32,000 nt of DNA from Pseudidiomarina andamanensis (GCF_009734345.1 NZ_CP032551.1:420001-452000), one strand, 5' to 3'. Positions 5,184 through 32,000 are shown, numbered from the stretch's first letter. Numbers and translations: made by a program. Notes: a model not told the origin generated them from the sequence alone.

Positions 5184-5912
5184 TCAAAAGCCTTTACTGA
5201 TACTTATTACATGATTTTCTTGATTCAGCACGCGCCAACGAATATTCACGTTGTATAGCGTCATGCCGTATTCGCGGTCAGCGTCGTCGTGTTGTTGATA
5301 CGCGGGGCGAGGATCTTGTGCTAGCACCTGCGTTATGAGTGCCTGTAATTCCGGATAGTGAGGCATCAACTGTTGCAATTCTTCTCGTGCTTGATCACTA
5401 AAAGTAGTCATCAAATTTTTCTCTGGCGCGGTTGGTGCAAATCCGCCAGTAGCCGCTTGTATAGCATCGGCGTAGGGCACGTAAGGCTTGATATCAATCA
5501 CCGGTGTGTGATTTACCCAATCTGCACCTTGCACCTCAATAATGGTTTGTTTGTCTTGATGTTTGATATCGATAATTTGAACTACCGACATACCAATATT
5601 GTTTGGGCGGAACGTCGAGCGGGTGGCGAACACGCCGCGTTTCTCATTGCCACCAAGGCGCGGAGGGCGTACCAGAGGTTTCCAGCCCTGAGCTGTGGTT
5701 TGGTGAAATAAAAATAAAACCCAAATATGGGAGAACTCTTTTAGGCCGCGAACGCAATCAGGATGTCCATAGTCACCTTGCAACACGATGCGGGCTCTTG
5801 CCGCAGGTACGAGCCCAGGTTGTCGTGGTACGGCAAACTTCTCCGGGTAGGGTGATTCAATGAATCCTATCGGTTCAATGGTATGAGAAGTCATAATCGA
5901 ATGCTCGGACAT
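5184..5912 (-). CDS. trmO: tRNA (N6-threonylcarbamoyladenosine(37)-N6)-methyltransferase TrmO (YaeB/TsaA family)
   Basis: [20 protein letters not shown]...[12 protein letters not shown]...[28 protein letters not shown]...IDIKPYVPY matches E. coli YaeB. Adjacency to proS is the same as in E. coli. Confidence 0.9.
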
Positions 5913-6130
5913 GGTTCGTGTATCTGGTCGAATTAAATTTGTGTTATTTGAGCATAATTTTGTGATTTTGACTAATTTATGATGAGAATCTCAGCATGGA
6001 ATATTGAGTAACGTCTTGAAATTAAAGGGGTAAATAATTGGCATGATAATTGCTTTATAAACTTCGAGTGAATTTTTTACGTCCTATGAAGACGATGATG
6101 ACAACATTAATAATTACGGAGACAACAACA

Positions 6131-14101: not shown

Positions 14102-16060
14102 TTATTCATCTTTCAAACTAATCAATTCAGCGCCATCACTGACAAGATCACCAGCTTGATAGAATACTTGGGCAATTTCACCGTCGCGTGGTGCACGAAT
14201 GGTATATTCCATCTTCATCGCTTCCATAATCACCAGTGCTTGGTCTGCAGTGACAGTATCGCCAGCTTTAACCATCACCTGAACGACTGTACCATTCATT
14301 GGTGCAGTGAGGCTGCCAGCTGCAGTCTCTTGCTCAAGTGTATCAGTGACATTATGGCGATTGAAACGCAAGCTCGCGTGCTCGGTCATCACGACAATAT
14401 CGTGCTCTGCACGTAAAATGTGGGCTTGGAAGCGGTGGCCATTCTTGCTAAAGAACCACTGCTCGCCAATACGATCAACTTGCCACGCGTCGTTGCTGTC
14501 AACTTGATACCAAGATTGCTTGCGCTCAACCAACTGAATATCGTGAATAGTGTCACCATATTGCAGGTTGAGGCCGAATTGCCGCGGTTGGTTTAAACGA
14601 AAACTATGTTGGGTAAACCATGGATTTTGGTTGCCCACTGATTTTTCATCAAAGCGTTCAGCCAAAGTTGCCATTACCGCATAGTCGTTCACCAAATGGC
14701 TTGTGTCTGGGAACAAGTCCGCTTCATATTTTTCAATAAAGCGAGTGGTTAATTCTGCTTGGCCAAATTTCTTGTGGCTGGCAATACGTCGTAAGAAATC
14801 AATATTGGTGCGTACACCAGCAACGCGATAGTCGTTTAGTGCTTGAATAAGTCGACGCAGCGCAACGGTGCGGTTCTCACCCCAAACAATGAGTTTGGCG
14901 ATCATTGGATCATAGTATGAGCTGACTTCATCGCCAGCGATAACGCCGCTATCGATGCGCACATAATCGTTACTTGCAGGTGGTTGCAGCACGTGCAGCG
15001 TTCCGGTGCTTGGCAAAAACTCATGATCGGGGTCTTCGGCATAAATTCGTGCTTCAAATGAATGGCCGTTCACTTCAATCTGATCTTGAGCTAGGGGCAG
15101 GGGTTCGCCACTAGCCACCATAAGTTGCCACGCAACCAAGTCTTGACCCGTCACCATTTCAGTGACTGGATGCTCCACTTGCAAACGCGTATTCATTTCC
15201 ATGAAGTAGAATTTGTTGTCAGTATCCAGTAAGAACTCAACGGTACCGGCGCCAACATAATCAATCGCTTGCGCAGCACGCACAGCGGCTTCGCCCATCG
15301 CTTGACGGGTATTGGTGCTCATGGATGGTGCTGGTGCTTCTTCAATGACCTTTTGATGGCGACGTTGTACCGAGCAGTCGCGCTCAGCTAGATAAACAGC
15401 GTTGCCGTGCTCATCACAAAATACTTGAATTTCGACATGGCGTGGGTTGCCGATGAATTTTTCCACGAGCATTTTGTCATTGCCAAACGAGGCTTGCGCT
15501 TCGCGTTTAGCTGAGCTCAAGGCTTCATCAAATTGTTTTGCGTTCTCGACCACGCGCATGCCTTTACCGCCACCACCATAAGCTGCCTTTAACAGCACTG
15601 GGTAACCAATTTTTTCGGCTTCGGTACGCAATTTTTCAGCGCTTTGCTCACTACCGTGATAGCCCGGCACCAGCGGTACGCCAGCTTCGCTCATAATTGC
15701 TTTGGCGGCGCTCTTCGAACCCATTGCAGCAATGGCACTGGTTGGTGGCCCAACAAAGATAATATTGTTGCTAGCACACGCGTCGGCAAAATCTTCGTTC
15801 TCTGATAAAAAGCCATAACCAGGGTGAATGGCATCGGCGCCGGTTTGCTTTGCGGCGGCAATAATTTTATCGATGACCAGATAACTCTCCGCACTTGGCG
15901 CGGCGCCAATATGAATACTCTCATCGGCTAACTGTACGTGTTGGGAGTGACGATCTGCATCAGAGTAAACCGCTACAGTACGCACACCCAGTTCTCTAGC
16001 CGTTTTGATAATGCGGCAAGCAATTTCGCCGCGGTTAGCAATTAGCAATTTTTGCAACAT
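14102..16060 (-). CDS. liuD: 3-methylcrotonyl-CoA carboxylase alpha (biotin carboxylase + BCCP) subunit
   Basis: Biotin carboxylase N-terminus (KLLIANRGEIACRIIKTARELG). C-terminal biotinyl-Lys motif EAMKME. Liu cluster context. Confidence 0.93.
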   Translation of the reverse strand: MLQKLLIANRGEIACRIIKTARELGVRTVAVYSDADRHSQHVQLADESIHIGAAPSAESYLVIDKIIAAAKQTGADAIHPGYGFLSENEDFADACASNNIIFVGPPTSAIAAMGSKSAAKAIMSEAGVPLVPGYHGSEQSAEKLRTEAEKIGYPVLLKAAYGGGGKGMRVVENAKQFDEALSSAKREAQASFGNDKMLVEKFIGNPRHVEIQVFCDEHGNAVYLAERDCSVQRRHQKVIEEAPAPSMSTNTRQAMGEAAVRAAQAIDYVGAGTVEFLLDTDNKFYFMEMNTRLQVEHPVTEMVTGQDLVAWQLMVASGEPLPLAQDQIEVNGHSFEARIYAEDPDHEFLPSTGTLHVLQPPASNDYVRIDSGVIAGDEVSSYYDPMIAKLIVWGENRTVALRRLIQALNDYRVAGVRTNIDFLRRIASHKKFGQAELTTRFIEKYEADLFPDTSHLVNDYAVMATLAERFDEKSVGNQNPWFTQHSFRLNQPRQFGLNLQYGDTIHDIQLVERKQSWYQVDSNDAWQVDRIGEQWFFSKNGHRFQAHILRAEHDIVVMTEHASLRFNRHNVTDTLEQETAAGSLTAPMNGTVVQVMVKAGDTVTADQALVIMEAMKMEYTIRAPRDGEIAQVFYQAGDLVSDGAELISLKDE

Positions 16061-20106: not shown

Positions 20107-20150
20107 TTTTGCTTGCTTGTCATGGTTGAGAGCGTTAAGCTTAAAACAAG

Positions 20151-20166
20151 TTGACGTTAACGTAAA
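20151..20166. promoter_or_regulatory. Candidate LiuR (MerR-type) operator, overlapping a putative liuR promoter
   Basis: Imperfect 16-bp palindrome TTGACGTTAACGTAAA, 45 nt upstream of the liuR ATG. On the minus strand TTTACG (-35-like, 20161-20166) is followed 17 nt later by TAAGCT (-10-like, 20138-20143). The assignment to LiuR is inferred from position and family habit. Confidence 0.55.
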
Positions 20167-20180
20167 GGTAAGAAAAGCCG

Positions 20181-20350
20181 AAAAGCGTTATTCGTTATTC
20201 GTTATTCGTTATTCGTTACTGGTTATTCGTTCGCTCAGCTCGCTCAATGGTTATTTCGTATAAAATCGGAAGTAGCGCGATGCGATAGTTTGAAAGCTAG
20301 ACGTCATTGTATTCTCGAATAACGAATAACGAATAACGAATAACGTTTTT
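20181..20350. repeat. Heptamer-armed palindromic element, copy 1 (6 left units / 4 right units, 86-bp core)
   Basis: Left side: AAAAGCG (20181-20187), then TTATTCG x4, TTACTGG, TTATTCG (20188-20229). Core: 20230-20315. Right side: CGAATAA x4 (20316-20343), then CGTTTTT. Confidence 0.9.
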
Positions 20351-20370
20351 GGGTCTTCAAGGGAGTATTT

Positions 20371-21549
20371 ATGTCTGATGCAGTAGTGATTGTTGCCGCC
20401 AAACGCACCCCAATGGGTGGCTTTCAAGGCAGTTTGACCGAAGTGAGCGCCCCCAATTTAGGCGCCATCGCCATCAAAGCAGCGCTTGCAGAGAGCGGGT
20501 TGCGTGGCGACGACGTGCAGGAAGTCATTATGGGCAACGTGTTGCCGGCCGGTTTAGGGCAGGCGCCTGCGCGTCAGGCAACATTGTATGCAGGGCTACC
20601 GCGCAGTGCTGGCGCGACAACCATTAATAAAGTGTGCGGTTCTGGCTTGAAAGCGGTGATGTTCGCGCATGATTTAATTCATGTTGGTTCGGCCGATGTG
20701 GTGGTAGCTGGTGGCATGGAAAGCATGTCGAATGCGCCTTATTTGCTGAAAAAAGCGCGCGCAGGTTTCCGCATGGGCCACGATGCCATTTATGATCACA
20801 TGATGTTGGATGGTCTTGAAGATGCTTACGAAGGCAAGGCTATGGGCTGTTATGCACAGAGCACTGCTGATGACTATGGTCTTGGTCGTGAAGCGATGGA
20901 TAACTTTGCTTTGGCTTCATTAAGCCGCGCTCAAACAGCAATTAAAGACGGTTTGTTCAAAGATGAAATTGTGCCGGTCACCTACAGCACGCGTAAGGGC
21001 GATGTTACCGTTGAAATTGATGAGCAACCAGGCAAAGCCATGCCGGATAAAATTCCAGGTTTACGCCCAGCGTTTGCCAAAGATGGCACGATTACGGCAG
21101 CGAACTCGAGCTCAATTTCAGACGGTGCTGCCGCATTGGTATTGATGCGTGAAAGCGAAGCGAAAGCGCGAGGCTTAAAACCGTTAGCACGTGTTGTCGG
21201 GCATGCGACGCACTCACAAGCGCCAGCTGAATTTACCGTGGCGCCAATTGGTGCGATGAACAAATTGCTCGATAAGGTTCAATGGAATAAAGACGACGTT
21301 GACTTGTGGGAAATTAACGAAGCCTTCGCGATGGTGACCATGCTCGCTATGCAGCAAATGGATATTGACCATGACAAAGTGAATGTTCATGGCGGCGCTT
21401 GCGCACTTGGTCACCCAATTGGTGCCAGCGGCGCACGTTTGCTCGTTACGTTGCTGCACGCGCTGAAACAGCGCGGCAAGCAACGTGGTATTACGTCGCT
21501 TTGTATTGGTGGCGGCGAAGCCGTAGCTGTCGCTGTTGAAATGATCTAG
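20371..21549 (+). CDS. acetyl-CoA C-acetyltransferase (thiolase II; likely the 2-methylacetoacetyl-CoA/acetoacetyl-CoA thiolase of BCAA catabolism)
   Basis: 392 aa. Active-site Cys (NKVCGSGLKAV), plus GGACALGHPIGASGAR and LCIGGGEAVAV. SD GGGAG lies before the ATG. Confidence 0.92.
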   Translation: MSDAVVIVAAKRTPMGGFQGSLTEVSAPNLGAIAIKAALAESGLRGDDVQEVIMGNVLPAGLGQAPARQATLYAGLPRSAGATTINKVCGSGLKAVMFAHDLIHVGSADVVVAGGMESMSNAPYLLKKARAGFRMGHDAIYDHMMLDGLEDAYEGKAMGCYAQSTADDYGLGREAMDNFALASLSRAQTAIKDGLFKDEIVPVTYSTRKGDVTVEIDEQPGKAMPDKIPGLRPAFAKDGTITAANSSSISDGAAALVLMRESEAKARGLKPLARVVGHATHSQAPAEFTVAPIGAMNKLLDKVQWNKDDVDLWEINEAFAMVTMLAMQQMDIDHDKVNVHGGACALGHPIGASGARLLVTLLHALKQRGKQRGITSLCIGGGEAVAVAVEMI

Positions 21550-22394
21550 CTTGATCGTTTTGACGCGAGCCATACTGAGCTAATCAGAATGGCACCGCCG
21601 AGGGCAAGCCGTGGCCAGTCTACGGCTTGACCCCAAAACGCATAGTTAATCAGCAAGCCCGCTGGAATAAGCATATTATTCATGGTGGCAAGTTGGGCAA
21701 CGTTAACGCGCTTCGCACCAAGGTTCCATGCCAGATAACCAAGGCCGGATGCGCCGAGACCAAGCCACAGTAAAATACCCCATTCTAGCTGGGTTGTTGG
21801 TACTTTAGAGAAATCGGCAAAGAGTGCCATCGCAATACCAGATGCAGCGGTGGCGCCAATGAAGAATAGGGCGAAGGCGTGTACTTGATTACGAGCATCA
21901 CCAAGTTCGAGTCGTTTATAAAAGACTTGCCCAGCCGCGAAACATAGGTTGGCTGCTTGAATCAATAAGAAGCCAATGACAAATGAATCGCTAAGTGTTT
22001 CAAAGCGGATGACGGCGGCACCAATGACGGCGACAACCGCTGCAAGCCACCAACGAGCCGGTAAATGTCGACGTTGGAAAATCACGTCGTCGATAAGCGT
22101 CACATAAAGTGGCGTAAAAATCGTAAATAAAAGTACTTCAGGAACGGATAGATAAAGAAATGCGTGGTAGAGGAAAAGATACATCACGCCAATTTGAATG
22201 GCACCAATAACGGCGAGCTGCCATTGCTGTCGAAAAGCAAGACGAGCAGGGCGCCAAAGCGGTAAAAACAAAGCAAGCGCAAGGATCATGCGGATAAATA
22301 CGGCAATATAACCGTCGACATGGCCGGCAAGAAACTCCCCGATGAGTGAAAAGCTTGCAGCCCATAGTGCGGTCACAGCCCAAAGTATCCACAT
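21546..22394 (-). CDS. EamA/DMT-family transporter
   Basis: 282 aa, about 10 predicted TM helices, two-EamA-repeat architecture. Sits 15 nt downstream of the AraC-family gene on the same strand. Confidence 0.8.
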   Translation of the reverse strand: MWILWAVTALWAASFSLIGEFLAGHVDGYIAVFIRMILALALFLPLWRPARLAFRQQWQLAVIGAIQIGVMYLFLYHAFLYLSVPEVLLFTIFTPLYVTLIDDVIFQRRHLPARWWLAAVVAVIGAAVIRFETLSDSFVIGFLLIQAANLCFAAGQVFYKRLELGDARNQVHAFALFFIGATAASGIAMALFADFSKVPTTQLEWGILLWLGLGASGLGYLAWNLGAKRVNVAQLATMNNMLIPAGLLINYAFWGQAVDWPRLALGGAILISSVWLASKRSS

Positions 22395-22409
22395 AGTTAT
22401 TTTCCTTTT

Positions 22410-23297
22410 TTAATTTGCGCTTTTGGTTGCAGAACTTTCGCGATAGTACTGCGGTGATATACCCATCGTTTTCTTAAACAGTCGCGAAAAATAATACGGG
22501 TCATCGAAACCGAGTTGTTGACTGATTTGACGAATTGAATCGGTTGAAGCATCTAACAACTGACAGGCTATTTTAACCCGAATTTGATTAAAGTAACGCA
22601 TCGGGCTAGTACCAGTGAATTGTTTGAATTTTTTGCTGAAATGAAAGCGCGATAACCCAGCAAAATCAGCAAAATCGTCTAGGCTTAAGTCGCGATGCGA
22701 GTTGTCGTACATAAAGCGTTCGAGTGCCGGTAAATCAAAGCCTTGTGGCGCCTGCATGGTTGCCGTTAAGCGCGGTAATTCAGCAATAATTCGCTGCAGT
22801 AAACTGGCGGCGACCACCGCCGCGGCAAACTGATGACGTTGGGTTTGCAAATTGAGTAGGTCGGTAACCACTGGAATAAGTTGTCGCCAGCGAGCTAGCG
22901 TTAATACCGGTTGCTGGTCGGTTAATTCAAGAAATTCAGGGCATGCCGCTGCTGCGGAACCTTGAAAGTGTGCCCAGTAAATGCTCCAGGGCTGTTCGGC
23001 GTGCGCTGCATAAGCGTGAGCCTGCCCAGCTGGTAATAGCAATAATTGTCCAGCACGGAGCGTGCCGCTGGCCGTCTCGGTTCGATACCAGCCGCTACCG
23101 CGATGGCAAAATATGAGTAGGTAATCGGTGTGTTGCTGGCGTTCTACTTGGTGCCCTTGGGCATCGACATAATGTCCGTATGCAAGCGGATATAAATGTT
23201 TCGTCAGTGGATGGCGAGCTAGTTGTCGGGTCAATTGTAATGGCAAAACAACGCGTGAACTTCCCGTTGGAAGTGGCCACGATGAAGGTTGGCTCAT
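22410..23297 (-). CDS. AraC-family transcriptional regulator (MmsR-like, divergent from mmsA)
   Basis: C-terminal AraC HTH (SLDDFADFAGLSRFHFSKKFKQFTGTSPMRYFNQIRVKIACQLL...GFDDPYYFSRLFKK) and an N-terminal cupin-like domain. The ATG at 23297 (MSQPSS...) has GGAG 6 nt upstream. The listed start at 23375 is a TTG with no SD and is probably an over-extension. Confidence 0.8.
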   Translation of the reverse strand: MSQPSSWPLPTGSSRVVLPLQLTRQLARHPLTKHLYPLAYGHYVDAQGHQVERQQHTDYLLIFCHRGSGWYRTETASGTLRAGQLLLLPAGQAHAYAAHAEQPWSIYWAHFQGSAAAACPEFLELTDQQPVLTLARWRQLIPVVTDLLNLQTQRHQFAAAVVAASLLQRIIAELPRLTATMQAPQGFDLPALERFMYDNSHRDLSLDDFADFAGLSRFHFSKKFKQFTGTSPMRYFNQIRVKIACQLLDASTDSIRQISQQLGFDDPYYFSRLFKKTMGISPQYYRESSATKSAN

Positions 23298-23325
23298 GGA
23301 AGGCTCCGAGATCGCAATTTTGTCC

Positions 23326-23331
23326 ATTATA
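23326..23331 (-). promoter_or_regulatory. Candidate -10 box (TATAAT) for the AraC-family gene
   Basis: A perfect TATAAT on the minus strand, about 29 nt upstream of the preferred ATG at 23297. A weak -35 (TTTAAC) sits 17 nt upstream. Sequence-only prediction. Confidence 0.3.
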
Positions 23332-23387
23332 GGGGCAAAATCGTCGATGTTAAAGGACTTCGAAAACAACGACAATGAATGAACGGC

Positions 23388-23571
23388 AAAAGCGTTAGTC
23401 GTTATTCGTTATTGGTTATTCGTGAGCGTTGTTTGCTCGTTAACTCTGTATCGAGGTTTGAGCGCTTTTCGATGTGTGAATTTTTGAACCATTTTTGATT
23501 GGTTTTTGTCTTTTTCGAATAACGAATAACGAATAACCAATAACGAATAACGAATAACGAGTAACGAATTC
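23388..23571. repeat. Heptamer-armed palindromic element, copy 2 (4 left / 8 right units, 93-bp core)
   Basis: Left side: AAAAGCG (23388-23394), then TTAGTCG TTATTCG TTATTGG TTATTCG (23395-23422). Right side: CGAATAA x3, CCAATAA, CGAATAA x2, CGAGTAA, CGAATTC (23516-23571). Confidence 0.9.
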
Positions 23572-23589
23572 AATAAAGAGGTTATACAG

Positions 23590-25089
23590 ATGAGCAAGAA
23601 AGTTCCTTTATTTATCGACGGCGAATTCGTGCAGTCGAACACCAGTAACTGGATTGACGTGACCAACCCAGCCACGCAAGAAGTGATTGCACAAGCACCT
23701 TGCGCGACACAAGACGAGATGAAAAAAGCGGTTGAGAGCGCGAAAAAAGCGTTTTTGACTTGGAAAGAAGTGCCAGTTTCTGAGCGTGCGCGTGTGATGA
23801 TGCGTTATCAAGCGTTGCTGAAAGAGCACCATGATGAAATTGCTGAGATTCTTGCCAGCGAAACCGGCAAAACCTTTGATGATGCGAAAGGCGACGTATG
23901 GCGTGGTATCGAAGTAGTTGAGCATGCAGCGAACATTCCATCATTGCTGATGGGTGAAACGGTTGAGAACGTTGCGCGCGGCATTGACAGCTACAGCTAC
24001 ACACAGCCACTTGGTGTTTGTGCGGGTATTACACCATTTAACTTCCCTGCGATGATTCCACTTTGGATGTTCCCACTGGCGATTGCCTGCGGTAACACAT
24101 TCATTTTGAAACCATCTGAGCAAGATCCATTAACGCCAACGCGTTTGGTTGAGTTGTTCGAGCAAGCAGGCGCTCCAAAAGGCGTGTTGCAAGTTATTCA
24201 CGGCGGTAAAGAGCAGGTTGACTTCTTATTAGACGAACCTGCCGTACGCGCGATTTCGTTTGTTGGTTCAGTGGCTGTAGGTCAATACATCTATCGCCGC
24301 GGTACTGAAAACATGAAACGCGTTCAAGCATTTGCTGGTGCGAAAAACCACTGCGTGATCATGCCTGATGCCAACAAATCACAAGTGATTAGCAACCTGG
24401 TTGGTGCTTCGGTAGGTGCTGCGGGTCAGCGTTGTATGGCGATTTCTGTTGCGGTATTCGTTGGTGCGGCACGTGAGTGGATTCCGGAAGTTGCTGCTGA
24501 ACTTGCGAAAGTGAAGCCAGGCGCGTGGAACGATAAAGATGCAGCTTACGGTCCAGTGATCAGTCCGCAAGCGAAGCAGCGCGTTGAGAACTTTATTGCG
24601 CAAGGCCAAAAAGAAGGTGCTGAGCTGTTAGTTGATGGTCGCAACTGTAAAGTTGAAGGTTTCCCGAACGGTAACTGGGTTGGTCCAACTATGTTTGGTA
24701 AAGTGACCACCGACATGGAAATCTACAAGAATGAGATTTTCGGTCCAGTATTGTGCGCCACTGAAGTTGAAACACTCGATGACGCATTAGCCATGGTCAA
24801 TGCGAACCCATACGGCAACGGTACGTCAATCTTTACGGCAAGCGGTGCAGCGGCGCGTAAATATCAGCACAACGTTGAAGTTGGTCAAGTGGGTATCAAC
24901 ATTCCAATTCCGGTACCACTGCCGTTCTTCTCATTCACCGGCTGGAAAGGGTCATTCTTTGGTGACTTGCATGCTTATGGTAAGCAAGCGGTGCGCTTCT
25001 ACAGTGAAACCAAAACCATTACAGCTCGTTGGTTTGAAAGCGATATCGCTGATGCCAATGGTCCAAATATGACGATTCATTTGAAGTAA
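23590..25089 (+). CDS. mmsA: methylmalonate-semialdehyde dehydrogenase (CoA-acylating)
   Basis: 499 aa aldehyde dehydrogenase with catalytic Cys in [10 protein letters not shown]-terminus [12 protein letters not shown] is typical of MMSDH. SD AGAGG. Confidence 0.93.
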
Positions 25090-25101
25090 TAGGACGTTGT
25101 C

Positions 25102-26259
25102 ATGAACTTTAATTTAACTGACGACCAACAAGCTTTTGTCGATACGGCAAAAGCTTTTGCTGAGAAAGAACTTGCGCCATTTGCTGCGCAGTGGGATGAA
25201 GAATCACACTTCCCAGTTGAAGTATTCCGTAAAGCCGGTGAAATGGGCTTTATGGGTATGTACACCCCAGAAGACGCCGGCGGCTTCGGCATGAGTCGAT
25301 TAGACGCGGCGTTGATTTTTGAACAATTATCGATGGGTTGTACCGCCACCACCGCCATGATGACCATTCACAACATGGTAACTTGGATGATTGGCTCGTT
25401 CGCGAAACCAGATGTGATTGAACAGTGGGTTCCAGAATTAGTGACGGGTGAGAAGTTAGGTTCTTATTGTTTGACTGAACCTGGTGCTGGGTCTGATGCG
25501 GCAAGCTTGCGAACCACTGCGAAAAAAGATGGCGATGAGTACGTGTTAAACGGCTCGAAAATGTTCATCTCAGGTGCCGGTAGTACCGACGTACTCGTTG
25601 TTATGGCGCGCACTGGTGAAGCTGGGCCGAAAGGTATTTCTGCATTTGTCGTACCAGCTGATGCAGCTGGTATTAGCTACGGCAAAAAAGAAGCGAAGAT
25701 GGGCTGGAATGCTCAGCCAACTCGTTTGGTTACTTTTGAAGATGTTCGTATTCCGGCTGATAATTTGCTTGGCGAAGAAGGCGAAGGCTTTAAGTTTGCC
25801 ATGATGGGACTAGACGGCGGCCGTATTAATATCGCGGTATGCTCAGTCGGCACTGCGCAAGCAGCGTTAGAAACAGCAACCAACTACATGCACGAACGCA
25901 CGCAGTTCGGTAAAGAGCTAGGCCACTTCCAAGCGTTGCAGTTTAAGCTAGCTGATATGGCTACCGAGCTTGTTGCTGCGCGTCAGATGGTTCGCTTGGC
26001 GGCATTCAAAGTTGATAGCAACGATCCAGATAAAACCACCTATTGCGCGATGGCAAAACGTTTTGCCACCGACGTTGGCTTCCAAGTGTGTAACGAAGCG
26101 CTGCAAATTCACGGCGGTTACGGTTACATCAAGGAATACCCGCTTGAACGTCATGTGCGCGATGTACGCGTGCATCAAATTCTTGAGGGCACCAACGAAA
26201 TTATGCGGGTGATTATCGCACGCCGCCTACTCGCCGATATGGACCGAGCCATCCTTTAA
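25102..26259 (+). CDS. acyl-CoA dehydrogenase (probable isobutyryl-/2-methylbutyryl-CoA dehydrogenase)
   Basis: 385 aa ACAD family (CLTEPGAGSDAASL...ILEGTNEIMRVIIARRLL). Substrate is inferred only from its position after mmsA. Confidence 0.85.
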   Translation: MNFNLTDDQQAFVDTAKAFAEKELAPFAAQWDEESHFPVEVFRKAGEMGFMGMYTPEDAGGFGMSRLDAALIFEQLSMGCTATTAMMTIHNMVTWMIGSFAKPDVIEQWVPELVTGEKLGSYCLTEPGAGSDAASLRTTAKKDGDEYVLNGSKMFISGAGSTDVLVVMARTGEAGPKGISAFVVPADAAGISYGKKEAKMGWNAQPTRLVTFEDVRIPADNLLGEEGEGFKFAMMGLDGGRINIAVCSVGTAQAALETATNYMHERTQFGKELGHFQALQFKLADMATELVAARQMVRLAAFKVDSNDPDKTTYCAMAKRFATDVGFQVCNEALQIHGGYGYIKEYPLERHVRDVRVHQILEGTNEIMRVIIARRLLADMDRAIL

Positions 26260-26291
26260 GGGTGGCTTTTCTGTCTTAAAAGGAGGTCATT

Positions 26292-27416
26292 ATGGATCCA
26301 GTAGTATTGTTCGACGAGCTTGAAGCAAGTAACGGCAAACGCATTGGTATCATCACCCTAAACTCAGAAAAATCATTGAACGCGTTAAGCTTACCTATGA
26401 TTCAGCTGTTGCAACCACAGCTGCAGCAATGGGCAAACGATGACGCTATTGCCTGCGTATTTATGCAAGGGGCGGGTGAGAAAGCTTTCTGCGCTGGTGG
26501 CGATATTGTGGCCATGTACAAAGCCATGCAAGCGAAGCCAGGCGTGTTGGTTGATGAGGTTGCTGACTTTTTTAGCCAAGAATACCGACTTGATTACGCC
26601 ATTCACACCTTCCCAAAGCCGCTTGTGCTTTGGGGGCACGGCATTGTGATGGGCGGTGGTATGGGCCTCATGAACGGTGCCAGCCATCGTATTGTGACTG
26701 AGCGCTCGTTGTTGGCTATGCCGGAAGTGACGATTGGTTTGTACCCTGATGTTGGCGCGACCCACTTTTTGAATCAAATGCCTGAGGGCTGTGGCCTATT
26801 CTTAGGGCTCACTGGCGCGCACATGAACGCGACAGATGCGCTGTATTTGAAACTGGCGGATCATTTTGTGGCAAGCACCAGTAAAGACGACGTACTCGCA
26901 GGCTTGAAAGACGTGAAGTGGGGCGATACCGCTGCATTGAATCACCAAAAAGTGACTGATGTTCTCAATGGCATTGGCATGCGCGATAGCAATCAGCGTC
27001 CTGCTGGACAAGTGGAAGCCCACCAGCAATTGATTAAAAAGTTGACGCAAGGTGCTGACATCGAAGCCGTTGTTAATGCAATTGTGAATGATACGACCGA
27101 TGACAAATGGCTAGCTCGCGCCCGTCAAACCCTGGCGGCAGGTTGTCCAATGACTGCTCATATTGTGTGGAATCAATTACAACACGGCGCTGATTTGAGT
27201 TTAGCTGACTGCTTCCGTCTTGAATTAACCTTATCGGTTCAATGTGCGATGCGCGGCGATTTCGCAGAGGGTATTCGCGCGCTGTTAATTGATAAGGATA
27301 AGCAGCCGAAGTGGCAGCATGGTTCGGTTGGTGAGGTTTCGGCTGAAGAGGTTGATGGCTTTTTCACGTCGCCATGGGCGGCAGCTGATCACCCACTCGC
27401 AACTTTAGGTAAGTGA
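26292..27416 (+). CDS. 3-hydroxyisobutyryl-CoA hydrolase (long crotonase-family enzyme)
   Basis: 374 aa. GAGEKAFCAGGDIV and AMPEVTIGLYPDVGATHFL motifs, with the C-terminal extension typical of HIBCH rather than a 260-aa hydratase. Strong SD AAGGAGG. Confidence 0.82.
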   Translation: MDPVVLFDELEASNGKRIGIITLNSEKSLNALSLPMIQLLQPQLQQWANDDAIACVFMQGAGEKAFCAGGDIVAMYKAMQAKPGVLVDEVADFFSQEYRLDYAIHTFPKPLVLWGHGIVMGGGMGLMNGASHRIVTERSLLAMPEVTIGLYPDVGATHFLNQMPEGCGLFLGLTGAHMNATDALYLKLADHFVASTSKDDVLAGLKDVKWGDTAALNHQKVTDVLNGIGMRDSNQRPAGQVEAHQQLIKKLTQGADIEAVVNAIVNDTTDDKWLARARQTLAAGCPMTAHIVWNQLQHGADLSLADCFRLELTLSVQCAMRGDFAEGIRALLIDKDKQPKWQHGSVGEVSAEEVDGFFTSPWAAADHPLATLGK

Positions 27417-27418
27417 TA

Positions 27419-27576
27419 AAAAGCGTTGTTCGTTATTCGTGCGTTCGCTTTGCTCACTGTTCGTACGTGCTTCGCACTGTTCGAATAGCGCAGCGGACGA
27501 ATAATGAACAACGAATAACGAACAACGAATAACGAACAACGAATAACGAACAACGAATAACGAGCAACGAATAACG
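27419..27576. repeat. Heptamer-armed palindromic element, copy 3 (2 left / 11 right units, 58-bp core)
   Basis: Left side: AAAAGCG (27419-27425), then TTGTTCG TTATTCG (27426-27439). Right arm at 27498-27574 alternates CGAATAA/CGAACAA (14-nt superperiod), then CGAGG supplies the mmsB SD. Confidence 0.9.
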
Positions 27577-27584
27577 AGGTTCTT

Positions 27585-28478
27585 ATGGCGAATGTTGGAT
27601 TTATTGGGCTTGGCAATATGGGCGGCCCGATGGCTGCAAACCTTTTCAAAGGCGGCCATCAGGTTAAAGTTTTTGATTTAGCAGAAGTAGCATTGCAGGC
27701 AGCGAAAGACGCCGGTTGCAGCGTGGCCGGCTCGGCCAATGAAGCGGCGCAAGGCGTTGATTTCGTGATTACCATGTTACCTGCAGATAAACACGTTGAG
27801 AGTGTTTACTTGGGTGATAATGGCTTGATTCACGAATTACCAAGCAGCACACTCGTGATTGACTGCAGTACGATTAGCGCAGAAACAGCACGTAAGGTTG
27901 GTCAAGCATTAGCAGCGGAAGGTATTTCGTTTATTGATGCACCAGTTTCTGGTGGTGTTGGTGGCGCGAAGGCCGGTACGCTGACCTTTATCTGTGGTGG
28001 TGATACAACCGCAGTTGATCGTGCGCGCGATGTATTGCAACACATGGGCAAAAACATCTTCCGTGCCGGTGATACAGGCGCTGGTCAAGTTGCGAAAATC
28101 TGCAACAATATGTTGCTGTCGGTGTTAATGATTGGTACTTCGGAAGCGTTGCAGTTGGGCATTGCTCATGGTCTTGATCCGAAAGTGCTGTCGGAGATTA
28201 TGTCGAAGAGTTCCGGTAGCAACTGGACTTTAGATGTATATAATCCTTGCCCTGGTGTGATGGATAATGTGCCTTCAAGCAACGGCTACCAAGGTGGCTT
28301 TTTAGTTGACTTGATGAGTAAAGACCTTGGCCTGGCACAGCAAGCGGCGTTAGCTAGCGGTGCGGCGACCCCAATGGGTGGTTTAACTCACAACTTGTAT
28401 CGCAGTTGGTCACAGCTTGGACACGGTCGTGAAGACTTCTCCAGTATCTTTAATTTCGTTAAAGCGAATAAAAAATAA
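27585..28478 (+). CDS. mmsB: 3-hydroxyisobutyrate dehydrogenase
   Basis: 297 aa. NAD-binding VGFIGLGNMGGPMAANL. Family core (DAPVSGGVGGAKAGTLTFICGG, GAGQVAKICNNM). Confidence 0.92.
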   Translation: MANVGFIGLGNMGGPMAANLFKGGHQVKVFDLAEVALQAAKDAGCSVAGSANEAAQGVDFVITMLPADKHVESVYLGDNGLIHELPSSTLVIDCSTISAETARKVGQALAAEGISFIDAPVSGGVGGAKAGTLTFICGGDTTAVDRARDVLQHMGKNIFRAGDTGAGQVAKICNNMLLSVLMIGTSEALQLGIAHGLDPKVLSEIMSKSSGSNWTLDVYNPCPGVMDNVPSSNGYQGGFLVDLMSKDLGLAQQAALASGAATPMGGLTHNLYRSWSQLGHGREDFSSIFNFVKANKK

Positions 28479-28492
28479 CCGATAACGAACGG
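28465..28492. repeat. Degenerate solo right arm of the heptamer element (about 4 units)
   Basis: CGAATAA AAAATAA CCGATAA CGAACGG spans the mmsB stop (TAA 28476-28478) and runs into the SD-like GGGG before the SDR ATG at 28500. No left arm is present. Confidence 0.4.
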
Positions 28493-28499
28493 GGAAATT

Positions 28500-29264
28500 A
28501 TGAAAATTGCTGAAAGTACCATTGTTATTACCGGTGGCGCCCAAGGTTTGGGCCGCGCGATGGCTGAACATTTTGCCGCAGAAGGCGCGCAATTGGCGCT
28601 GATTGATATGAATGCCGACACGCTGACTGAAGCTGAAGGTATTTGTACGGCTAAAGGTGCCAAGAAGGTTAAAGGCTACGTTGTGAACGTAACCGACGAA
28701 GCAGCTGTTGAGCAGGTATTTAATGACATCGTAGCAGACTTTGGCGCGGTGAACGTGTTGATTAATAACGCGGGTATTTTGCGCGACGGTATGTTGATTA
28801 AGTGCAAAGACGGTGAGATTACTCACAAAATGCCGTTACAACAGTTCCAATCAGTATTGGATGTTAACTTAACCGGTAGCTTTTTATGTGGCCGCGAGGC
28901 ATCGGCTCATATGGCAAAAGCTGGCAACGGCGGCGTTATCATTAATATTTCAAGTGTTGCTCGTGCCGGTAATATTGGCCAGACCAACTATGCGGCAACG
29001 AAAGCCGGCGTGGTTGCGATGACGGTCACATGGGCACGTGAGCTAGGTCGCTTTGGTATTCGTTGTGGTGCCATTGCACCAGGATTTATCGAAACGCCAA
29101 TGACTGCACAAATGAAGCCTGAGGCAGTTGAACGTGCATTGAGCATGGTGCCGTTACGCCGTTGGGGGCAGCCAGAAGAGATAGCCCACAGTGCGCGTTA
29201 TATTATTGAGAATGACTTCTTTAGCGGACGTGTGATAGAAATAGACGGTGGCGTTCGACTATAA
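28500..29264 (+). CDS. SDR-family oxidoreductase (FabG-like; possibly 3-hydroxy-2-methylbutyryl-CoA/3-hydroxyacyl-CoA dehydrogenase)
   Basis: 254 aa. TGGAQGLG cofactor motif and YAATKAG catalytic Y-x3-K. The insertion (KCKDGEITHKMPLQQFQSVLDVNLTGSF) and C-terminus (IIENDFFSGRVIEIDGG) resemble type-2 hydroxyacyl-CoA dehydrogenases. Substrate is inferred. Confidence 0.75.
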   Translation: MKIAESTIVITGGAQGLGRAMAEHFAAEGAQLALIDMNADTLTEAEGICTAKGAKKVKGYVVNVTDEAAVEQVFNDIVADFGAVNVLINNAGILRDGMLIKCKDGEITHKMPLQQFQSVLDVNLTGSFLCGREASAHMAKAGNGGVIINISSVARAGNIGQTNYAATKAGVVAMTVTWARELGRFGIRCGAIAPGFIETPMTAQMKPEAVERALSMVPLRRWGQPEEIAHSARYIIENDFFSGRVIEIDGGVRL

Positions 29265-29273
29265 CGAGTACTG

Positions 29274-30173
29274 ATGCGTAAATTACCCCCATTAAATGCC
29301 TTAAAAGCGTTTGAAGCTGCTGCCCGACACCTGAGTTTTACTAGGGCAGCTGATGAATTGTTTGTTACCCAAGCAGCGGTAAGTCACCAAGTAAAAGCGC
29401 TTGAGGAATTTTTGGGGGTTCAATTATTTTTACGCCGCAATCGGTCACTGTTACTTACCCCAGAAGGTCAATCCTATTATCTTGAACTAAAAGAAATTTT
29501 CGATCACATTGTTCAAGCGACTGAAAAGGTGAAATTTGCCAGTCAGCGTGGCTCGCTAACCATTTCATTACCGCCAAGTTTTGCCATTTTATGGTTCGTG
29601 CCGCGCTTAAGCCGGTTTCGTGAAGCTTATCCGGATATCGATGTCCGCATTCGTGCCGTTGATGAAGTGGACGGTTCATTAACTGATGACGTTGACGTTG
29701 CTATTTATTACGGCGCGGGTAAGTGGCCAGGTTTAAAAGCTTATAAATTACACAATGAATACCTGATTCCGGTGTGTTCTCCATTACTATTAAATGGCAC
29801 CAAACCACTGCGTGAACCACGTGATTTGTTGAATCATACGTTACTGCACGACGAAACTCGCAATGCTTGGAAAGACTGGTTTAAGCTGGTTGGTATAGAT
29901 AAAGACAAGGGCGACAACGGGCCAATTTTTAGTCATTCCAATTTAGCACTGAAAGCAGCCGTGCACGGGCAGGGCATTGCGTTAGCTAATAATGTATTGG
30001 TCAAGCCAGAAATTGATGCAGGACATTTAATTCAAATATTCCCTGATGCCTTACCACGGCAGAAATCTTTTTATCTTGTTTGTCGTGACTCTCAGTCAGA
30101 AGTCGGTAAAATCGCCACCTTCCGAAATTGGCTACTGCAAGTGGTCGAAGAAGAAGAGGATAGTTATGAGTGA
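29274..30173 (+). CDS. gcvA: LysR-family glycine cleavage system transcriptional activator
   Basis: Collinear with E. coli GcvA along its full length (LPPLNALKAFEAAARHLSFTRAADELFVTQAAVSHQVKALEEFLG...RRNRSLLLTPEGQSYYL...PIFSHSNLALKAAVHGQGIALANNV...FYLVCRDSQSEVGKIATFRNWLL). Lies close to rlmM, as in E. coli. Confidence 0.9.
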   Translation: MRKLPPLNALKAFEAAARHLSFTRAADELFVTQAAVSHQVKALEEFLGVQLFLRRNRSLLLTPEGQSYYLELKEIFDHIVQATEKVKFASQRGSLTISLPPSFAILWFVPRLSRFREAYPDIDVRIRAVDEVDGSLTDDVDVAIYYGAGKWPGLKAYKLHNEYLIPVCSPLLLNGTKPLREPRDLLNHTLLHDETRNAWKDWFKLVGIDKDKGDNGPIFSHSNLALKAAVHGQGIALANNVLVKPEIDAGHLIQIFPDALPRQKSFYLVCRDSQSEVGKIATFRNWLLQVVEEEEDSYE

Positions 30174-30801
30174 TAACCAGCGTGTTGCGATTCATCGCGA
30201 TAACGCCGATGGTCAATATCGAGTGATTTTTGCGCACGGCGCCGGTGCTGGGTTACAAAGCGATTTTATGCAATATATCGCGCTGGCATTAGCACTGAAC
30301 GATATTGAAGTGGTTCGCTTTAACTTTCCTTATTGGCAAAAATTTATGGATTCAGGTGTACGTCGACCACCGAATCGAATGTCTGAGCTGGAGCATTGCA
30401 TGCGCACCGTGGCAAGCCAGTTTAATGACGACAAACCATTGTTTTTAATGGGGAAGTCAATGGGCTCTCGCGTTGCGTTTCGACTTGCCGATGAGCTGAA
30501 TTCAAGAGCCGCCATTGCCTTGGGTTTTCCATTTCACCCAGTTGGCAAACCTGAAAAATTGCGACTGGATGACTTAAATAATCACCGCGAACAGAATCTG
30601 ATTATTCAAGGTACACGAGATAACTTTGGCAAGCCTGAGCAGGTGCGCAGTTATCCGTTGCCTGCAAATGTTGCGGTAAAATGGATTGAGGGTGGTGATC
30701 ACAGTCTTGAACCAACGAAGCGCAGTGGCTATACGCGCGAGCAATTGTGGCAAGCGGCAGTAAACGAAGTAACGAAACTAATAAAAAGCGTTGATCGTTA
30801 G
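30166..30801 (+). CDS. alpha/beta-fold hydrolase (COG3571-like small hydrolase)
   Basis: The ATG at 30166 (MSDNQRVAIH...) overlaps the gcvA stop by 8 nt. HGAGAG motif and nucleophile elbow GKSMGS. The listed start at 30046 would lie inside gcvA. Confidence 0.75.
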   Translation: MSDNQRVAIHRDNADGQYRVIFAHGAGAGLQSDFMQYIALALALNDIEVVRFNFPYWQKFMDSGVRRPPNRMSELEHCMRTVASQFNDDKPLFLMGKSMGSRVAFRLADELNSRAAIALGFPFHPVGKPEKLRLDDLNNHREQNLIIQGTRDNFGKPEQVRSYPLPANVAVKWIEGGDHSLEPTKRSGYTREQLWQAAVNEVTKLIKSVDR

Positions 30802-30902
30802 TCGTTATTGGTTATTCGAAACAGATAAAAGTAAGTCATTAGGTTTGAATCTTTGCTCTACGAATAACCAATAACGAAATTCGAATAACGAATAACGCTT
30901 TT
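30784..30902. repeat. Heptamer-armed palindromic element, copy 4 (4 left / 5 right units, 42-bp core)
   Basis: Left side: AAAAGCG (30784-30790), then TTGATCG TTAGTCG TTATTGG TTATTCG (30791-30818). Right side: CGAATAA CCAATAA CGAAATT CGAATAA CGAATAA (30861-30895), then CGCTTTT (30896-30902). Confidence 0.9.
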
Positions 30903-30917
30903 ACCAAGGGGTTATGA

Positions 30918-32000
30918 ATGACCGGAATTGTGGCCTATTGTCGGCCCGGATTTGAAAATGATTGTGCCGCAGAGCTGCAAGATAAAACCGCAGTACTAGG
31001 CATCTATGGCTATTGCCAAACAAAGCCGCAGCAAGGCTTTGTGGTTTATCGCTGTCAATCGGAAGAAGCAGAGCATTTAGCGAAAAAGTTAATTCTTCGA
31101 GAGTTAATTTTCACGCGCCAGTTCATTGTGATTTTGGCTCATGTCACCGAGCTGCCACAAGAAGATCGGGTAAGTGCGGTGCAAGTGGCGCTGCTTGATG
31201 AGGACGTACAAGAGGCTTTCGCTGGTGTGAAGCCGTGTGGCGATATTCGTGTGGAAACACCCGATACCAATGATGGTAAAGAGCTGTCAAAATTTTGTCG
31301 TAAATTCACTGTGCCACTGCGTCAGGGACTACGTAAAATTGATTGGTTAACGGTGAAAGAAAGCGACCGTCGACCAACGTTGCATGCGTTCTTTTTAAGT
31401 AATCAGGAAGTATATATTGGTTTTTCTTATTCGTTTAACCAATCACCTTGGTTGATGGGTATTCCACGCTTACGTTCGCCAAGTGATGCGCCAAGTCGTT
31501 CAACATTAAAGCTCGACGAAGCGTTTCAAGTGTTTGTGCCAGAGCACGAGCGTGAAGAACGTATCACCTCAGGCATGAACGCCGTTGATCTTGGTGCGGC
31601 GCCTGGTGGTTGGACGTATCAGTTAGTGCGTCGTGGCATGATGGTGCAAGCTGTTGATAATGGTCCAATGGCGCAAAGCTTAATGGATACGGGCCAAGTA
31701 AAACATATTCGCGAAGATGGCTTTAAGTATCGCCCGAAGAAAAAAAACGTGACGTGGTTGGTCTGCGATATGGTTGAGAAACCTGCGCGTGTTGGTGAGC
31801 TGATGACGAGTTGGTTGATTGATGGTGACTGCAAAGAAGCGATTTTCAACTTGAAACTACCAATGAAGCGACGCTATGCCGCAGTGGCAGAATACCTTGA
31901 ACAGATTAAGCAAACGTTAGTTGAACAAGGTCGTGGCCGGTTTGAATTGCAAGCGAAACAGCTTTATCACGATCGCGAAGAGATTACTGTGCATATACGC
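30918..32000 (+). CDS. rlmM: 23S rRNA (cytidine2498-2'-O)-methyltransferase RlmM, 3'-truncated by the window edge
   Basis: Not in the ORF track because no stop is reached. My translation from the ATG at 30918 (SD AAGGGG) is open for 361 codons. It reads MTGIVAYCRPGFENDCAAEL...DLGAAPGGWTYQLVRRGMMVQAVDNGPMAQSLMDTGQVKHIREDGFKYRP...WLVCDMVEKPARV...IFNLKLPMKRRY...LYHDREEITVHIR, closely matching E. coli RlmM (YgdE). Confidence 0.9.
   Translation, partial: MTGIVAYCRPGFENDCAAELQDKTAVLGIYGYCQTKPQQGFVVYRCQSEEAEHLAKKLILRELIFTRQFIVILAHVTELPQEDRVSAVQVALLDEDVQEAFAGVKPCGDIRVETPDTNDGKELSKFCRKFTVPLRQGLRKIDWLTVKESDRRPTLHAFFLSNQEVYIGFSYSFNQSPWLMGIPRLRSPSDAPSRSTLKLDEAFQVFVPEHEREERITSGMNAVDLGAAPGGWTYQLVRRGMMVQAVDNGPMAQSLMDTGQVKHIREDGFKYRPKKKNVTWLVCDMVEKPARVGELMTSWLIDGDCKEAIFNLKLPMKRRYAAVAEYLEQIKQTLVEQGRGRFELQAKQLYHDREEITVHIR

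Follow-up and report, generated by a model that had tools for sequence, protein, structure and literature searches.

Heptamer-armed foldback repeats at the gene junctions of a branched-chain amino acid cluster in Pseudidiomarina andamanensis

Why do tandem copies of the heptamer CGAATAA stand a few nucleotides before one start codon after another in the branched-chain amino acid (BCAA) catabolic cluster of Pseudidiomarina andamanensis? The question arose from a 32,000-nt stretch of its genome (GCF_009734345.1, NZ_CP032551.1:420001-452000), referred to as the window herein. An original prediction held that five arrays out of five run in the CGAATAA sense just upstream of a gene, that their transcripts are ligands of Hfq or Hfq/Crc which an upstream (UUAUUCG)n arm can sequester, and that the arrays form a control module on BCAA genes. 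Our analysis makes it quite probable that the arrays belong instead to a dispersed, heptamer-armed foldback repeat that inserted at tolerant sites of the cluster and acts at most as a generic mRNA hairpin.

A search of the whole window with the 14-mer CGAATAACGAATAA, allowing up to 2 mismatches, returned 33 matches where 0.36 were expected, all of them within 20188-30895, which puts the heptamer arrays far above chance level. Tandem repeats were delimited with Tandem Repeats Finder (TRF), and in an inverted-repeat search every CGAATAA array was found to have an upstream TTATTCG partner, with arms of 17-38 nt that are 79-100% complementary and lie 42-119 nt apart. Each real array proved to be the right arm of a foldback of 120-190 nt with the layout AAAAGCG-(TTATTCG)n-centre-(CGAATAA)n-CGCTTTT, bounded by AAAAGCG at the left and CG(C/T)TTTT at the right. 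The four copies, E1 to E4, are listed here with their arrays.

20178-20353: E1, in the divergent spacer between liuR and the thiolase gene; left arm (TTATTCG)6.6 at 20186-20231 (TRF period 7, unit CGTTATT, 6.6 copies) and right arm (CGAATAA)4.3 at 20316-20345 (TRF period 7, unit CGAATAA, 4.3 copies).
23385-23575: E2, in the divergent spacer between araC and mmsA; left arm at 23393-23423 (TRF period 7, 4.4 copies) and right arm (CGAATAA)7.7 at 23516-23571 (TRF period 7, 7.7 copies at 23516-23569).
27418-27577: E3, at the junction from the 3-hydroxyisobutyryl-CoA hydrolase (HIBCH) gene to mmsB; short left arm at 27424-27440 and expanded right arm (CGAATAACGAACAA)5.8 at 27497-27577 (TRF, 11.6 heptamer copies, better fitted as 5.8 copies of the 14-mer).
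30784-30902: E4, at the junction from the abhydrolase gene to rlmM; left arm at 30789-30818 (TRF period 7, 3.4 copies at 30795-30818) and right arm at 30860-30902, ending in CGCTTTT (TRF period 7, 5.4 copies at 30860-30897).

Inverted termini, which together with a target-site duplication define miniature inverted-repeat transposable elements (MITEs), are present in all four copies. E1 has a degenerate centre, the termini AAAAGCG and CGTTTTT, and arms of 38 nt that are 95% complementary. The arms of E2 are 31 nt long and 97% complementary; this copy sits 88 nt from the true araC ATG, which is at 23296 and not at the TTG (23375) of the open reading frame (ORF) list, and it lies upstream of an araC promoter-like site at 23353-23326. 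E3 begins 2 nt past the HIBCH stop codon, ends 8 nt short of the mmsB ATG, and holds an inner palindrome of the GTTCGCT type at 27441-27496. For E4, the arms are 33 nt and 79% complementary, and the abhydrolase ORF (30046-30801) stops at a TAG (30799-30801) inside the left arm, so that the last few codons of abhydrolase are element-derived. Its orthologues in element-free relatives end earlier, abutting or overlapping rlmM. When the elements were searched against Rfam, no match reached the gathering threshold, and sub-threshold matches were to plant microRNA precursors only.

We compared the cluster with ten syntenic or partly syntenic loci (L122-L128 and L151-L153) fetched by exact-protein look-up, among which L124 is strain WS423, L128 a contig nearly identical to it, and L125 P. 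terrestris. The genes come in the same order in all ten, and the window's mmsB protein shares 96% identity with its Pseudidiomarina marina counterpart. The lengths of the four junctions are as follows.

liuR<>thiolase: window 264 nt, L122 191 nt, L123 230 nt, L124 131 nt, L125 144 nt.
araC<>mmsA: window 214 nt (from the ORF-list TTG at 23375), L122 216 nt, L123 243 nt, L124 128 nt, L125 122 nt.
HIBCH>mmsB: window 168 nt, L122 100 nt, L123 107 nt, L124 31 nt (also 31 nt in L128), L125 13 nt.
abhydrolase>rlmM: window 116 nt, L122 128 nt, L123 93 nt, L124 8 nt, L125 overlapping.

No junction of L124/L128 or L125, the 31-nt and 13-nt HIBCH>mmsB junctions included, contains an element; ordinary leaders such as aagaACGAGGttgttATG are found there. 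L127 carries an element at the mmsB junction only. The E1 site is thus empty in L124, L125 and L127, and the E2 site in L124, L125, L127 and L128. Elements with orthologous flanks occur in L122, L123, L126 and L151-L153; at the thiolase junction these flanks are gaaaagccgAAAAGCG at the left and gggtcttcaagggagtatttATG at the right. Because the same junctions are element-free in relatives whose operons are otherwise the same, we read the copies as insertions. On this comparison of sequences, the elements are lineage-specific additions to operons that function without them and not an ancestral module.

Where the junctions are occupied, the type of arm varies. The window has TTATTCG/CGAATAA at all four junctions, while L122 and L126 have ATATTAG/CTAATAT at mmsA and mmsB (at thiolase in L122 only) and a GTTCACT-core type ending in CGAATAA or CGAACAA at rlmM. 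In L123, three junctions carry ATATTAG or ATATCCG, and the mmsA junction carries a TTGTTCG-core type. For instance, the position orthologous to E1 holds an ATATTAG-type element in L122 and L123, as does the mmsB junction in L153, L122, L126 and L123. At mmsB the arm type does not track the similarity of the gene: L153 (98% identical) is of the ATATTAG type, and both L151/L152 (97%) and L127 (87%) are of the window type. In every case the arms stay complementary (16-44 nt, 79-100%, across unit types), and variant units are matched in both arms, such as CTATTGG with CCAATAG. One identical 28-nt arm is found at two different junctions of L122, which indicates that sequence was copied from one site to another. 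An ATATTAG left arm in L142 adjoins, and apparently encloses, a TTATTCG element, in a locus that stops short of the outer right arm. If one element nested in another and the outer arms were then lost, arm types could plausibly be replaced in this way.

The number of units also changes between close strains. At the mmsB junction there are 11.6 in the window versus ~3 in L151/L152, whose mmsB is 97% identical, a unit-number polymorphism of the kind that marks phase-variable simple-sequence repeats (SSRs). The L151/L152 element is an intact palindrome of 44 nt with 91% complementarity, relative to which E3 has lost part of its inner right arm. A public short-read assembly of a strain with identical mmsB (L121, 1-51) breaks exactly inside the E3 right array, which shows that the repeats fragment assemblies. 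An exact-protein look-up with the window's own mmsB gave a single contig, of 2.5 kb, broken within the array.

How should the nearness of the arrays to start codons then be read? The gaps given in the original prediction were correct, at 25 nt to the thiolase ATG (20371), 18 nt to that of mmsA (23590), 8 nt to that of mmsB (27585) and 15 nt to that of rlmM (30918). Two further features bear on the claim.

27573-27587, plus strand: the Shine-Dalgarno (SD) sequence of mmsB (CGAGG) and the ATG, directly abutting the last heptamer unit.
28465-28492, plus strand: the proposed fifth array, which is not an element; mmsB 3' end and the 21-nt spacer between mmsB and the short-chain dehydrogenase (SDR) gene.

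The four other arrays were recovered by TRF, and the fifth was ruled out as a repeat: 28465-28478 are the last mmsB codons (K-A-N-K-K-stop), no two canonical units are present, and the inverted-repeat search at 28465-28492 gave neither a left arm nor a partner. Orthologous mmsB>SDR spacers span 9-21 nt across the relatives' loci, with 21 nt in the window (28479-28499), L122 and L151-L153, and 9-10 nt in L123-L128. The 11 additional nt of this spacer in L122 resemble a tandem duplication (cggataattag-cggataaatt), and in L153 the spacer reads TAACGAATAACGAG, with one canonical heptamer unit inside.

The orientation score, five out of five in the original claim, is really four of four, and it is uninformative since reverse-complement arms force it: either strand of the element gives the same reading, and whichever arm is nearest to a downstream gene is always CGAATAA-sense. 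Only distance could carry information, and distance is constrained by the spacers. When element-free, the junctions that hold E3 and E4 measure 13-31 nt and 8 nt (or overlap), and both elements touch or overlap the upstream stop codon, so that their distances are largely forced by geometry. A caveat raised with the claim, that elements filling such short spacers make proximity trivial, becomes the main explanation of nearness, two of the elements lying in tiny ancestral junctions. Fusion of the SD with the last unit holds at mmsB only (aataaCGAGGttcttATG). Even there, the SD ACGAGGTT also occurs in the element-free strain WS423 (L124), which shares the ACGAGGTTnTT-ATG leader, making the SD ancestral. 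The result is deflationary for the original observation, since "five of five" reflects palindromic symmetry and very short spacers and is not evidence for Hfq/Crc control of BCAA catabolism. In sum, four arrays and their distances stand and the fifth array and orientation score fall, and of the interpretation the pairing of arms and the caveat survive where the Hfq/Crc and BCAA-module parts do not.

That pairing was examined by folding each element as RNA together with its leader, with these predictions.

E1: ΔG -78.2 kcal/mol, z -7.4, stem of ~36 bp.
E2: ΔG -69.2 kcal/mol, z -5.5, stem of ~30 bp.
E3: ΔG -59.7 kcal/mol, z -4.2, stem of ~17 bp and an inner helix.
E4: ΔG -47.5 kcal/mol, z -5.8, stem of ~33 bp with bulges.

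The (UUAUUCG)n arm is therefore able to pair with the (CGAAUAA)n arm, as had been proposed, in predicted hairpins of -47 to -78 kcal/mol (z -4.2 to -7.4). The CGAAUAA arm is predicted to be entirely paired in E1, E2 and E4, with ~7 units left single-stranded in E3 only, and the SD and AUG fall outside the predicted stems in all four folds. The predicted duplexes, 17-36 bp and near-perfect, are of the kind expected of RNase III substrates (~20 bp or more). RNase III cuts such double-stranded RNA in rRNA intervening sequences (IVSs) and Correia elements. The elements are very probably carried in mRNAs, to judge from the conserved promoter/operator blocks upstream of them and from operon junctions of 8-31 nt in relatives. 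E1 and E2 may form 5'-terminal stem-loops, as they start a few nucleotides past predicted transcription start sites, although the promoter-like matches are weak and were read by eye. Stem-loops at the 5' terminus are a known stabilising arrangement for mRNA. In Haemophilus influenzae, the heptamer-repeat hairpin of the hmw 5'-untranslated region (UTR) is cut by RNase III, and repeat number tunes expression (PMC12721329).

Is the family confined to leaders of catabolic genes? A genome-collection scan with (CGAATAA)3 returned over 120 loci, with six named Pseudidiomarina species, one Pseudidiomarina metagenome-assembled genome (MAG) and one Idiomarina MAG among the sources, and a metagenome scan with the right terminus returned 22 loci, 13 of them Idiomarinaceae-like. 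More than 25 independent inverted-arm copies in Idiomarinaceae-like contigs are intergenic and dispersed, as repetitive extragenic palindromic (REP) sequences and REPINs are. We tallied contexts by hand for ~25 independent copies, against tRNAs and crudely called ORFs (80 aa or longer). About 13 of these start no more than 12 nt after an upstream stop codon, and a start codon follows within 25 nt in only ~4. Convergent genes flank at least 3 (L028, L066, L116 3607-3691), canonical terminators directly adjoin several (L066, L133, L138, L141, L142/L150), and several are placed between tRNA genes or after them (L130, L133, and L147, which has three tRNA-Glu genes). By these contexts, the family behaves as REP-type elements and is not leader-specific. 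The tRNA-linked copies, at L147 1880-2433 (in tandem tRNA-Glu spacers), L130 450-730 and L133 2530-3215 (after tRNA-Val and a tRNA-Leu/Gln/Met operon), are probably co-transcribed with pre-tRNAs, given their positions.

Beyond the Idiomarinaceae, (CGAATAA)3 occurs in 20 loci of viral contigs, where composition-matched control heptamers occur in 10, 21 and 4. A horizontally transferred system shared across phyla was rejected, as the control heptamers are about as frequent, which fits generic heptamer slippage. The cross-phylum occurrence of (CGAATAA)n is probably convergent, judging by these counts. In L023, an Idiomarinaceae-like locus, two different heptamer arrays adjoin each other before one gene (4855-4969), in the order (GTAAAAA)7.6, (CGAAYAA)7.6, CGAGG and ATG.

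At a few loci, a gene for a PF05635 "23S rRNA intervening sequence protein", a four-helix bundle, lies exactly in the loop between inverted heptamer arms.

L058, 4809-5262: PF05635 gene in the loop.
L154, 2433-2922: PF05635 gene in the loop.
L156, 2330-2910: PF05635 gene in the loop.
L092, 1880-2330: PF05635 gene in the loop, Kaiserbacteria contig.

At the conserved Idiomarinaceae rpsT<>murJ spacer the ORF runs into the right array and ends there; this gammaproteobacterial case is a single locus passed on vertically, and the Kaiserbacteria contig (L092) is an independent one. The arrangement recalls rRNA IVSs, though placed in mRNA spacers. A general link between heptamer arrays and IVS-protein genes was discarded, because an iterated hidden Markov model search of the ORFs of ~120 loci found only 2 such genes; the association is real but rare. 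In L092 (1080-2900; Kaiserbacteria belong to the candidate phyla radiation), every intercistronic spacer is filled by heptamer arrays (ACGAATT, CGAATAA and complements), and the hairpins, with the right-type arm before the left-type arm, abut start codons.

From the observed anatomy, insertion polymorphism, arm complementarity, unit-number polymorphism and contexts, we infer how the family may have spread and what it may do. The arrays are the 3' arms of four copies of a reverse-complement-symmetric, REP- or MITE-like repeat of the Idiomarinaceae, inserted in intergenic spacers of the cluster in one Pseudidiomarina sub-lineage. Slippage would then have lengthened and shortened the arm arrays, and whole arm types would have been replaced, probably by element-in-element nesting or by recombination. 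Nearness to start codons would follow from the symmetry of the element, the tiny spacers, and insertion being tolerated only between promoter and SD. Once in place, the elements would be passively carried in mRNAs as AU-rich hairpins of 17-36 bp just 5' of an unpaired SD and AUG. Most likely they would work like mRNA hairpins of the REP, Correia or hmw kind, serving either as sites of RNase III processing or as stem-loops that stabilise the message and uncouple segments of the operon, with repeat number as a drifting tuning parameter.

Several points weigh against this scenario. No transposase or RAYT gene was identified in the 32-kb window, the genome not having been searched for RAYT, and mobility we infer solely from presence and absence and from identical arms at different sites. 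As to target-site duplication, no direct repeat flanks any of the 4 copies, and none is seen in the comparison of empty with filled sites. Four copies are clustered in 11 kb, with none in the remaining 20 kb of the window. The same four junctions are occupied in several species by different arm types, which is unusual for neutral repeats, and the sites could have been selected. Transcription through E1-E4 is likewise deduced. Lastly, units that are unpaired or in excess favour the mRNA-sense strand and places adjacent to the SD.

A broader version of the foldback repeat, which we put forward tentatively as a minor possibility, sees the elements as self-renewing hairpin cassettes, the mRNA or intergenic counterpart of rRNA IVSs. 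They would be excised or processed by RNase III, could house an IVS-protein gene in the loop, and would spread by nesting, their unpaired sense units being co-opted near the SD. Nesting into existing hairpins would produce wholesale TTATTCG/ATATTAG switches with the arms still complementary, and the co-opted sense units would be initiation or standby elements analogous to the TAACTGA network of Beggiatoaceae.

The excess units raise a related alternative, slightly less likely again, in which the sense arrays themselves were selected: single-stranded, unstructured (CGAAYAA)n immediately 5' of the SD would serve as an A-rich ribosome standby site or enhancer and as a three-frame stop, a role of the kind proposed for the TAACTGA repeats of Beggiatoaceae (PMC4679880), with the foldback secondary. 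Orientation can be defined only for unequal arms or single arrays. In 8/9 Idiomarinaceae-like tandem contexts (the L116 context corrected by eye), the longer or sole array has CGAAYAA on the coding strand, and unpaired arrays in tandem contexts across phyla are sense in 24 cases versus antisense in 10 by a stop-to-stop analysis. A first crude tally of arrays before start codons, ~38 sense versus 3 antisense, was set aside as partly an ORF-calling artefact, inflated because sense arrays carry stops in all frames. Five single arrays, all of them sense, end 10-25 nt before a start codon (L023, L071, L088, L116 6797-6845, L134 6349-6369), and each array carries stop codons in three frames. This bias of the excess units hints at selection or at a transcription-linked mechanism, and is the one residual point that favours the original prediction. 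It admits two readings, namely selection for an A-rich, all-frame-stop leader and slippage of the native leader. In element-free relatives, the native leader already reads CGAACAA-CGAGG, so its slippage would yield sense orientation and SD fusion and may suffice without any function. The samples are also small and the gene calls crude, 3/4 of the window copies leave no units unpaired, and most family copies lie near the 3' ends of genes.

Translational control of the Hfq/Crc type, in which (AAUAACG)n would be the Hfq distal-face or Crc ligand on catabolite-repressed BCAA mRNAs and (UUAUUCG)n the anti-ligand, is very unlikely. The arrays are A-rich and adjoin SDs, their arms can pair, and ~7 units of E3 are predicted to be unpaired. 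However, a regular-expression search of the four right arms and leaders found 0 AAnAAnAA and 0 AAYAAYAA, and the longest A-R-N run is 2, as the 7-nt period breaks the triplet register. The Hfq distal face was taken to need at least 3 consecutive single-stranded A-R-N triplets, and a Crc/Hfq target to carry the CA motif (AAnAAnAA) in or close to its ribosome-binding site; the four leaders offer neither. Nor do E1, E2 and E4 leave a free A-rich tract, because their right arms are fully base-paired in the predicted folds. The wider proposal of a module for BCAA catabolism does not agree with the same operons being element-free in P. terrestris, WS423 and partly L127, or with the wider distribution of the family, which takes in convergent junctions, spacers between tRNA genes, and sites that follow stop codons or adjoin terminators; rlmM and murJ, among the targets, are not catabolic genes.

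Equally improbable is an intrinsic terminator or attenuator, in which an A-run, hairpin and T-run (AAAAGCG...CGCTTTT) would make a bidirectional terminator insulating transcription units. An A-tract and a T-tract do flank the hairpin, UUUUU follows E1, and many family copies come directly after stop codons. Against this, a promoter/terminator scan (terminators as a short GC-rich stem, a loop of 3-8 nt and a U-tract) placed no site on any element, its only find being the araC promoter left of E2. The stems are AU-rich and the loops large, a separate canonical GC-rich terminator stands directly beside copies in L066, L133, L138, L141 and L142, and for the two window copies within ancestral operon junctions, efficient termination would shut off mmsB or rlmM. 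A DNA-level element, whether iterons for a regulator, nucleoid protein or transposase or a phase-variable promoter-gene spacer, is scarcely credible, for although unit number varies between close strains and three heptamers make 21 bp, two helical turns, it is arm complementarity and not unit sequence that is conserved at orthologous sites, which argues for structure over a sequence-specific site, and LiuR, the AraC-type regulators and their boxes are conserved in species without elements.

How do the foldback elements compare with known systems? Like the REP/REPIN sequences of Pseudomonas and enterobacteria, which are associated with a cognate single-copy RAYT gene, they are short, dispersed, intergenic inverted repeats that form hairpins, often lie just past stop codons, are very probably transcribed with their neighbours, stay in place at orthologous sites and differ in sequence type from genome to genome. 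Unlike REPs, which are fixed palindromes of ~25 nt with a 5' GT(A/G)G tetranucleotide, they have variable arms of tandem heptamers that switch type, and their termini (AAAAGCG / CGCTTTT) show no GTAG tetranucleotide by inspection. The Correia elements of Neisseria and the ERIC/IRU MITEs of Yersinia and enterobacteria are likewise 100-190 nt long, with inverted ends, and are found in 5'-UTRs and operon junctions. Their transcripts form hairpins, which RNase III cuts or which change mRNA stability. What distinguishes Correia elements is a TA target duplication and terminal inverted repeats of a defined 26 bp, in place of SSR arms with no target-site duplication seen. As in 23S rRNA IVSs, which may or may not encode the IVS protein (PF05635), the hairpins are AU-rich and extended; IVS hairpins are removed by RNase III, and heptamer-armed hairpins of L058, L154 and L092 enclose the IVS-protein gene in their loop, but the window elements lie in mRNA spacers, not rRNA, and have no ORF. 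Eukaryotic Foldback transposons also have inverted arms of short tandem repeats but are kilobases long.

Heptamers are the commonest long SSR unit in bacteria (Mrazek 2007, as cited in PMC4679880). TAACTGA direct repeats are known from marine Beggiatoaceae, cyanobacteria and Bacteroidetes, with one inverted case in 170 sets (MacGregor 2015, PMC4679880), and resemble the present arrays in being tandem heptamers with all-frame stops, mostly intergenic, forward and a few nucleotides from start codons, and in showing 7-nt-step indels between strains (unit TAACGAA here versus TAACTGA). The window arrays have the tandem heptamers, forward orientation, nearness to a start codon and three-frame stops of this type. 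Pseudidiomarina arrays, however, are mostly inverted hairpin pairs, for which orientation is automatic, and not direct repeats. At hmw1A/hmw2A of H. influenzae, a transcribed heptamer SSR, (ATCTTTC)n, is also one arm of a long 5'-UTR hairpin (PMC12721329), but there the opposite arm is a G-rich non-repeat at a single phase-variable locus, whereas here both arms are repeats, dispersed, and known from sequence alone. For the arrays of cyanobacterial short tandemly repeated repetitive (STRR) sequences, no bounded, palindromic form with conserved ends is described. Our literature search found no description of elements of this kind, and a search with the unit sequence gave no relevant match, so that the family appears to be undescribed.

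What sets the family apart is the combination of inverted arms made of tandem heptamers, occupation of the same operon junctions across species by different self-complementary units, and unit numbers that vary between near-identical strains. It links heptamer SSRs, REP-like hairpins and start-codon-proximal heptamer repeats in a culturable gammaproteobacterium. For annotation it carries a warning, as the elements break assemblies, extend upstream ORFs (the abhydrolase ending in E4) and mimic regulatory leaders.

The gene content of the cluster is as originally named. A MerR-type (LiuR-like) regulator and the liu operon lie on the minus strand; the thiolase gene comes next, and an EamA transporter and the AraC-type regulator are also encoded on the minus strand. 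Further genes are mmsA, acyl-CoA dehydrogenase, HIBCH and mmsB (ORF 27585-28478), and downstream of mmsB lie the SDR gene, a GcvA-like LysR regulator, abhydrolase and rlmM. One conserved site stands upstream of E1.

20148-20166: palindromic box TTGACGTTAACGTAAAGG between the MerR-type regulator gene and the thiolase gene, in all syntenic loci, element or not.

From its context this box is presumably a LiuR (MerR-family) operator with a divergent promoter block. In the divergent spacers, E1 and E2 are placed between such conserved upstream blocks and the SD, those of E2 being the araC promoter-like site and a conserved CGACAAT block. L123 alone has two extra genes after rlmM, at 14507-15891 (a TEN/YD-shell and peptidase M23 protein, and a 172-aa ORF). 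Elsewhere in the window, positions 5934-5978 hold a tandem repeat with a 21-nt period (consensus TAATTTTGTGATTTTGAC, 2.3 copies). The divergent spacer around it is flanked by an ORF ending at 5912 on the minus strand and an ORF starting at 6050 on the plus strand, and the repeat may be a binding site for a regulator.

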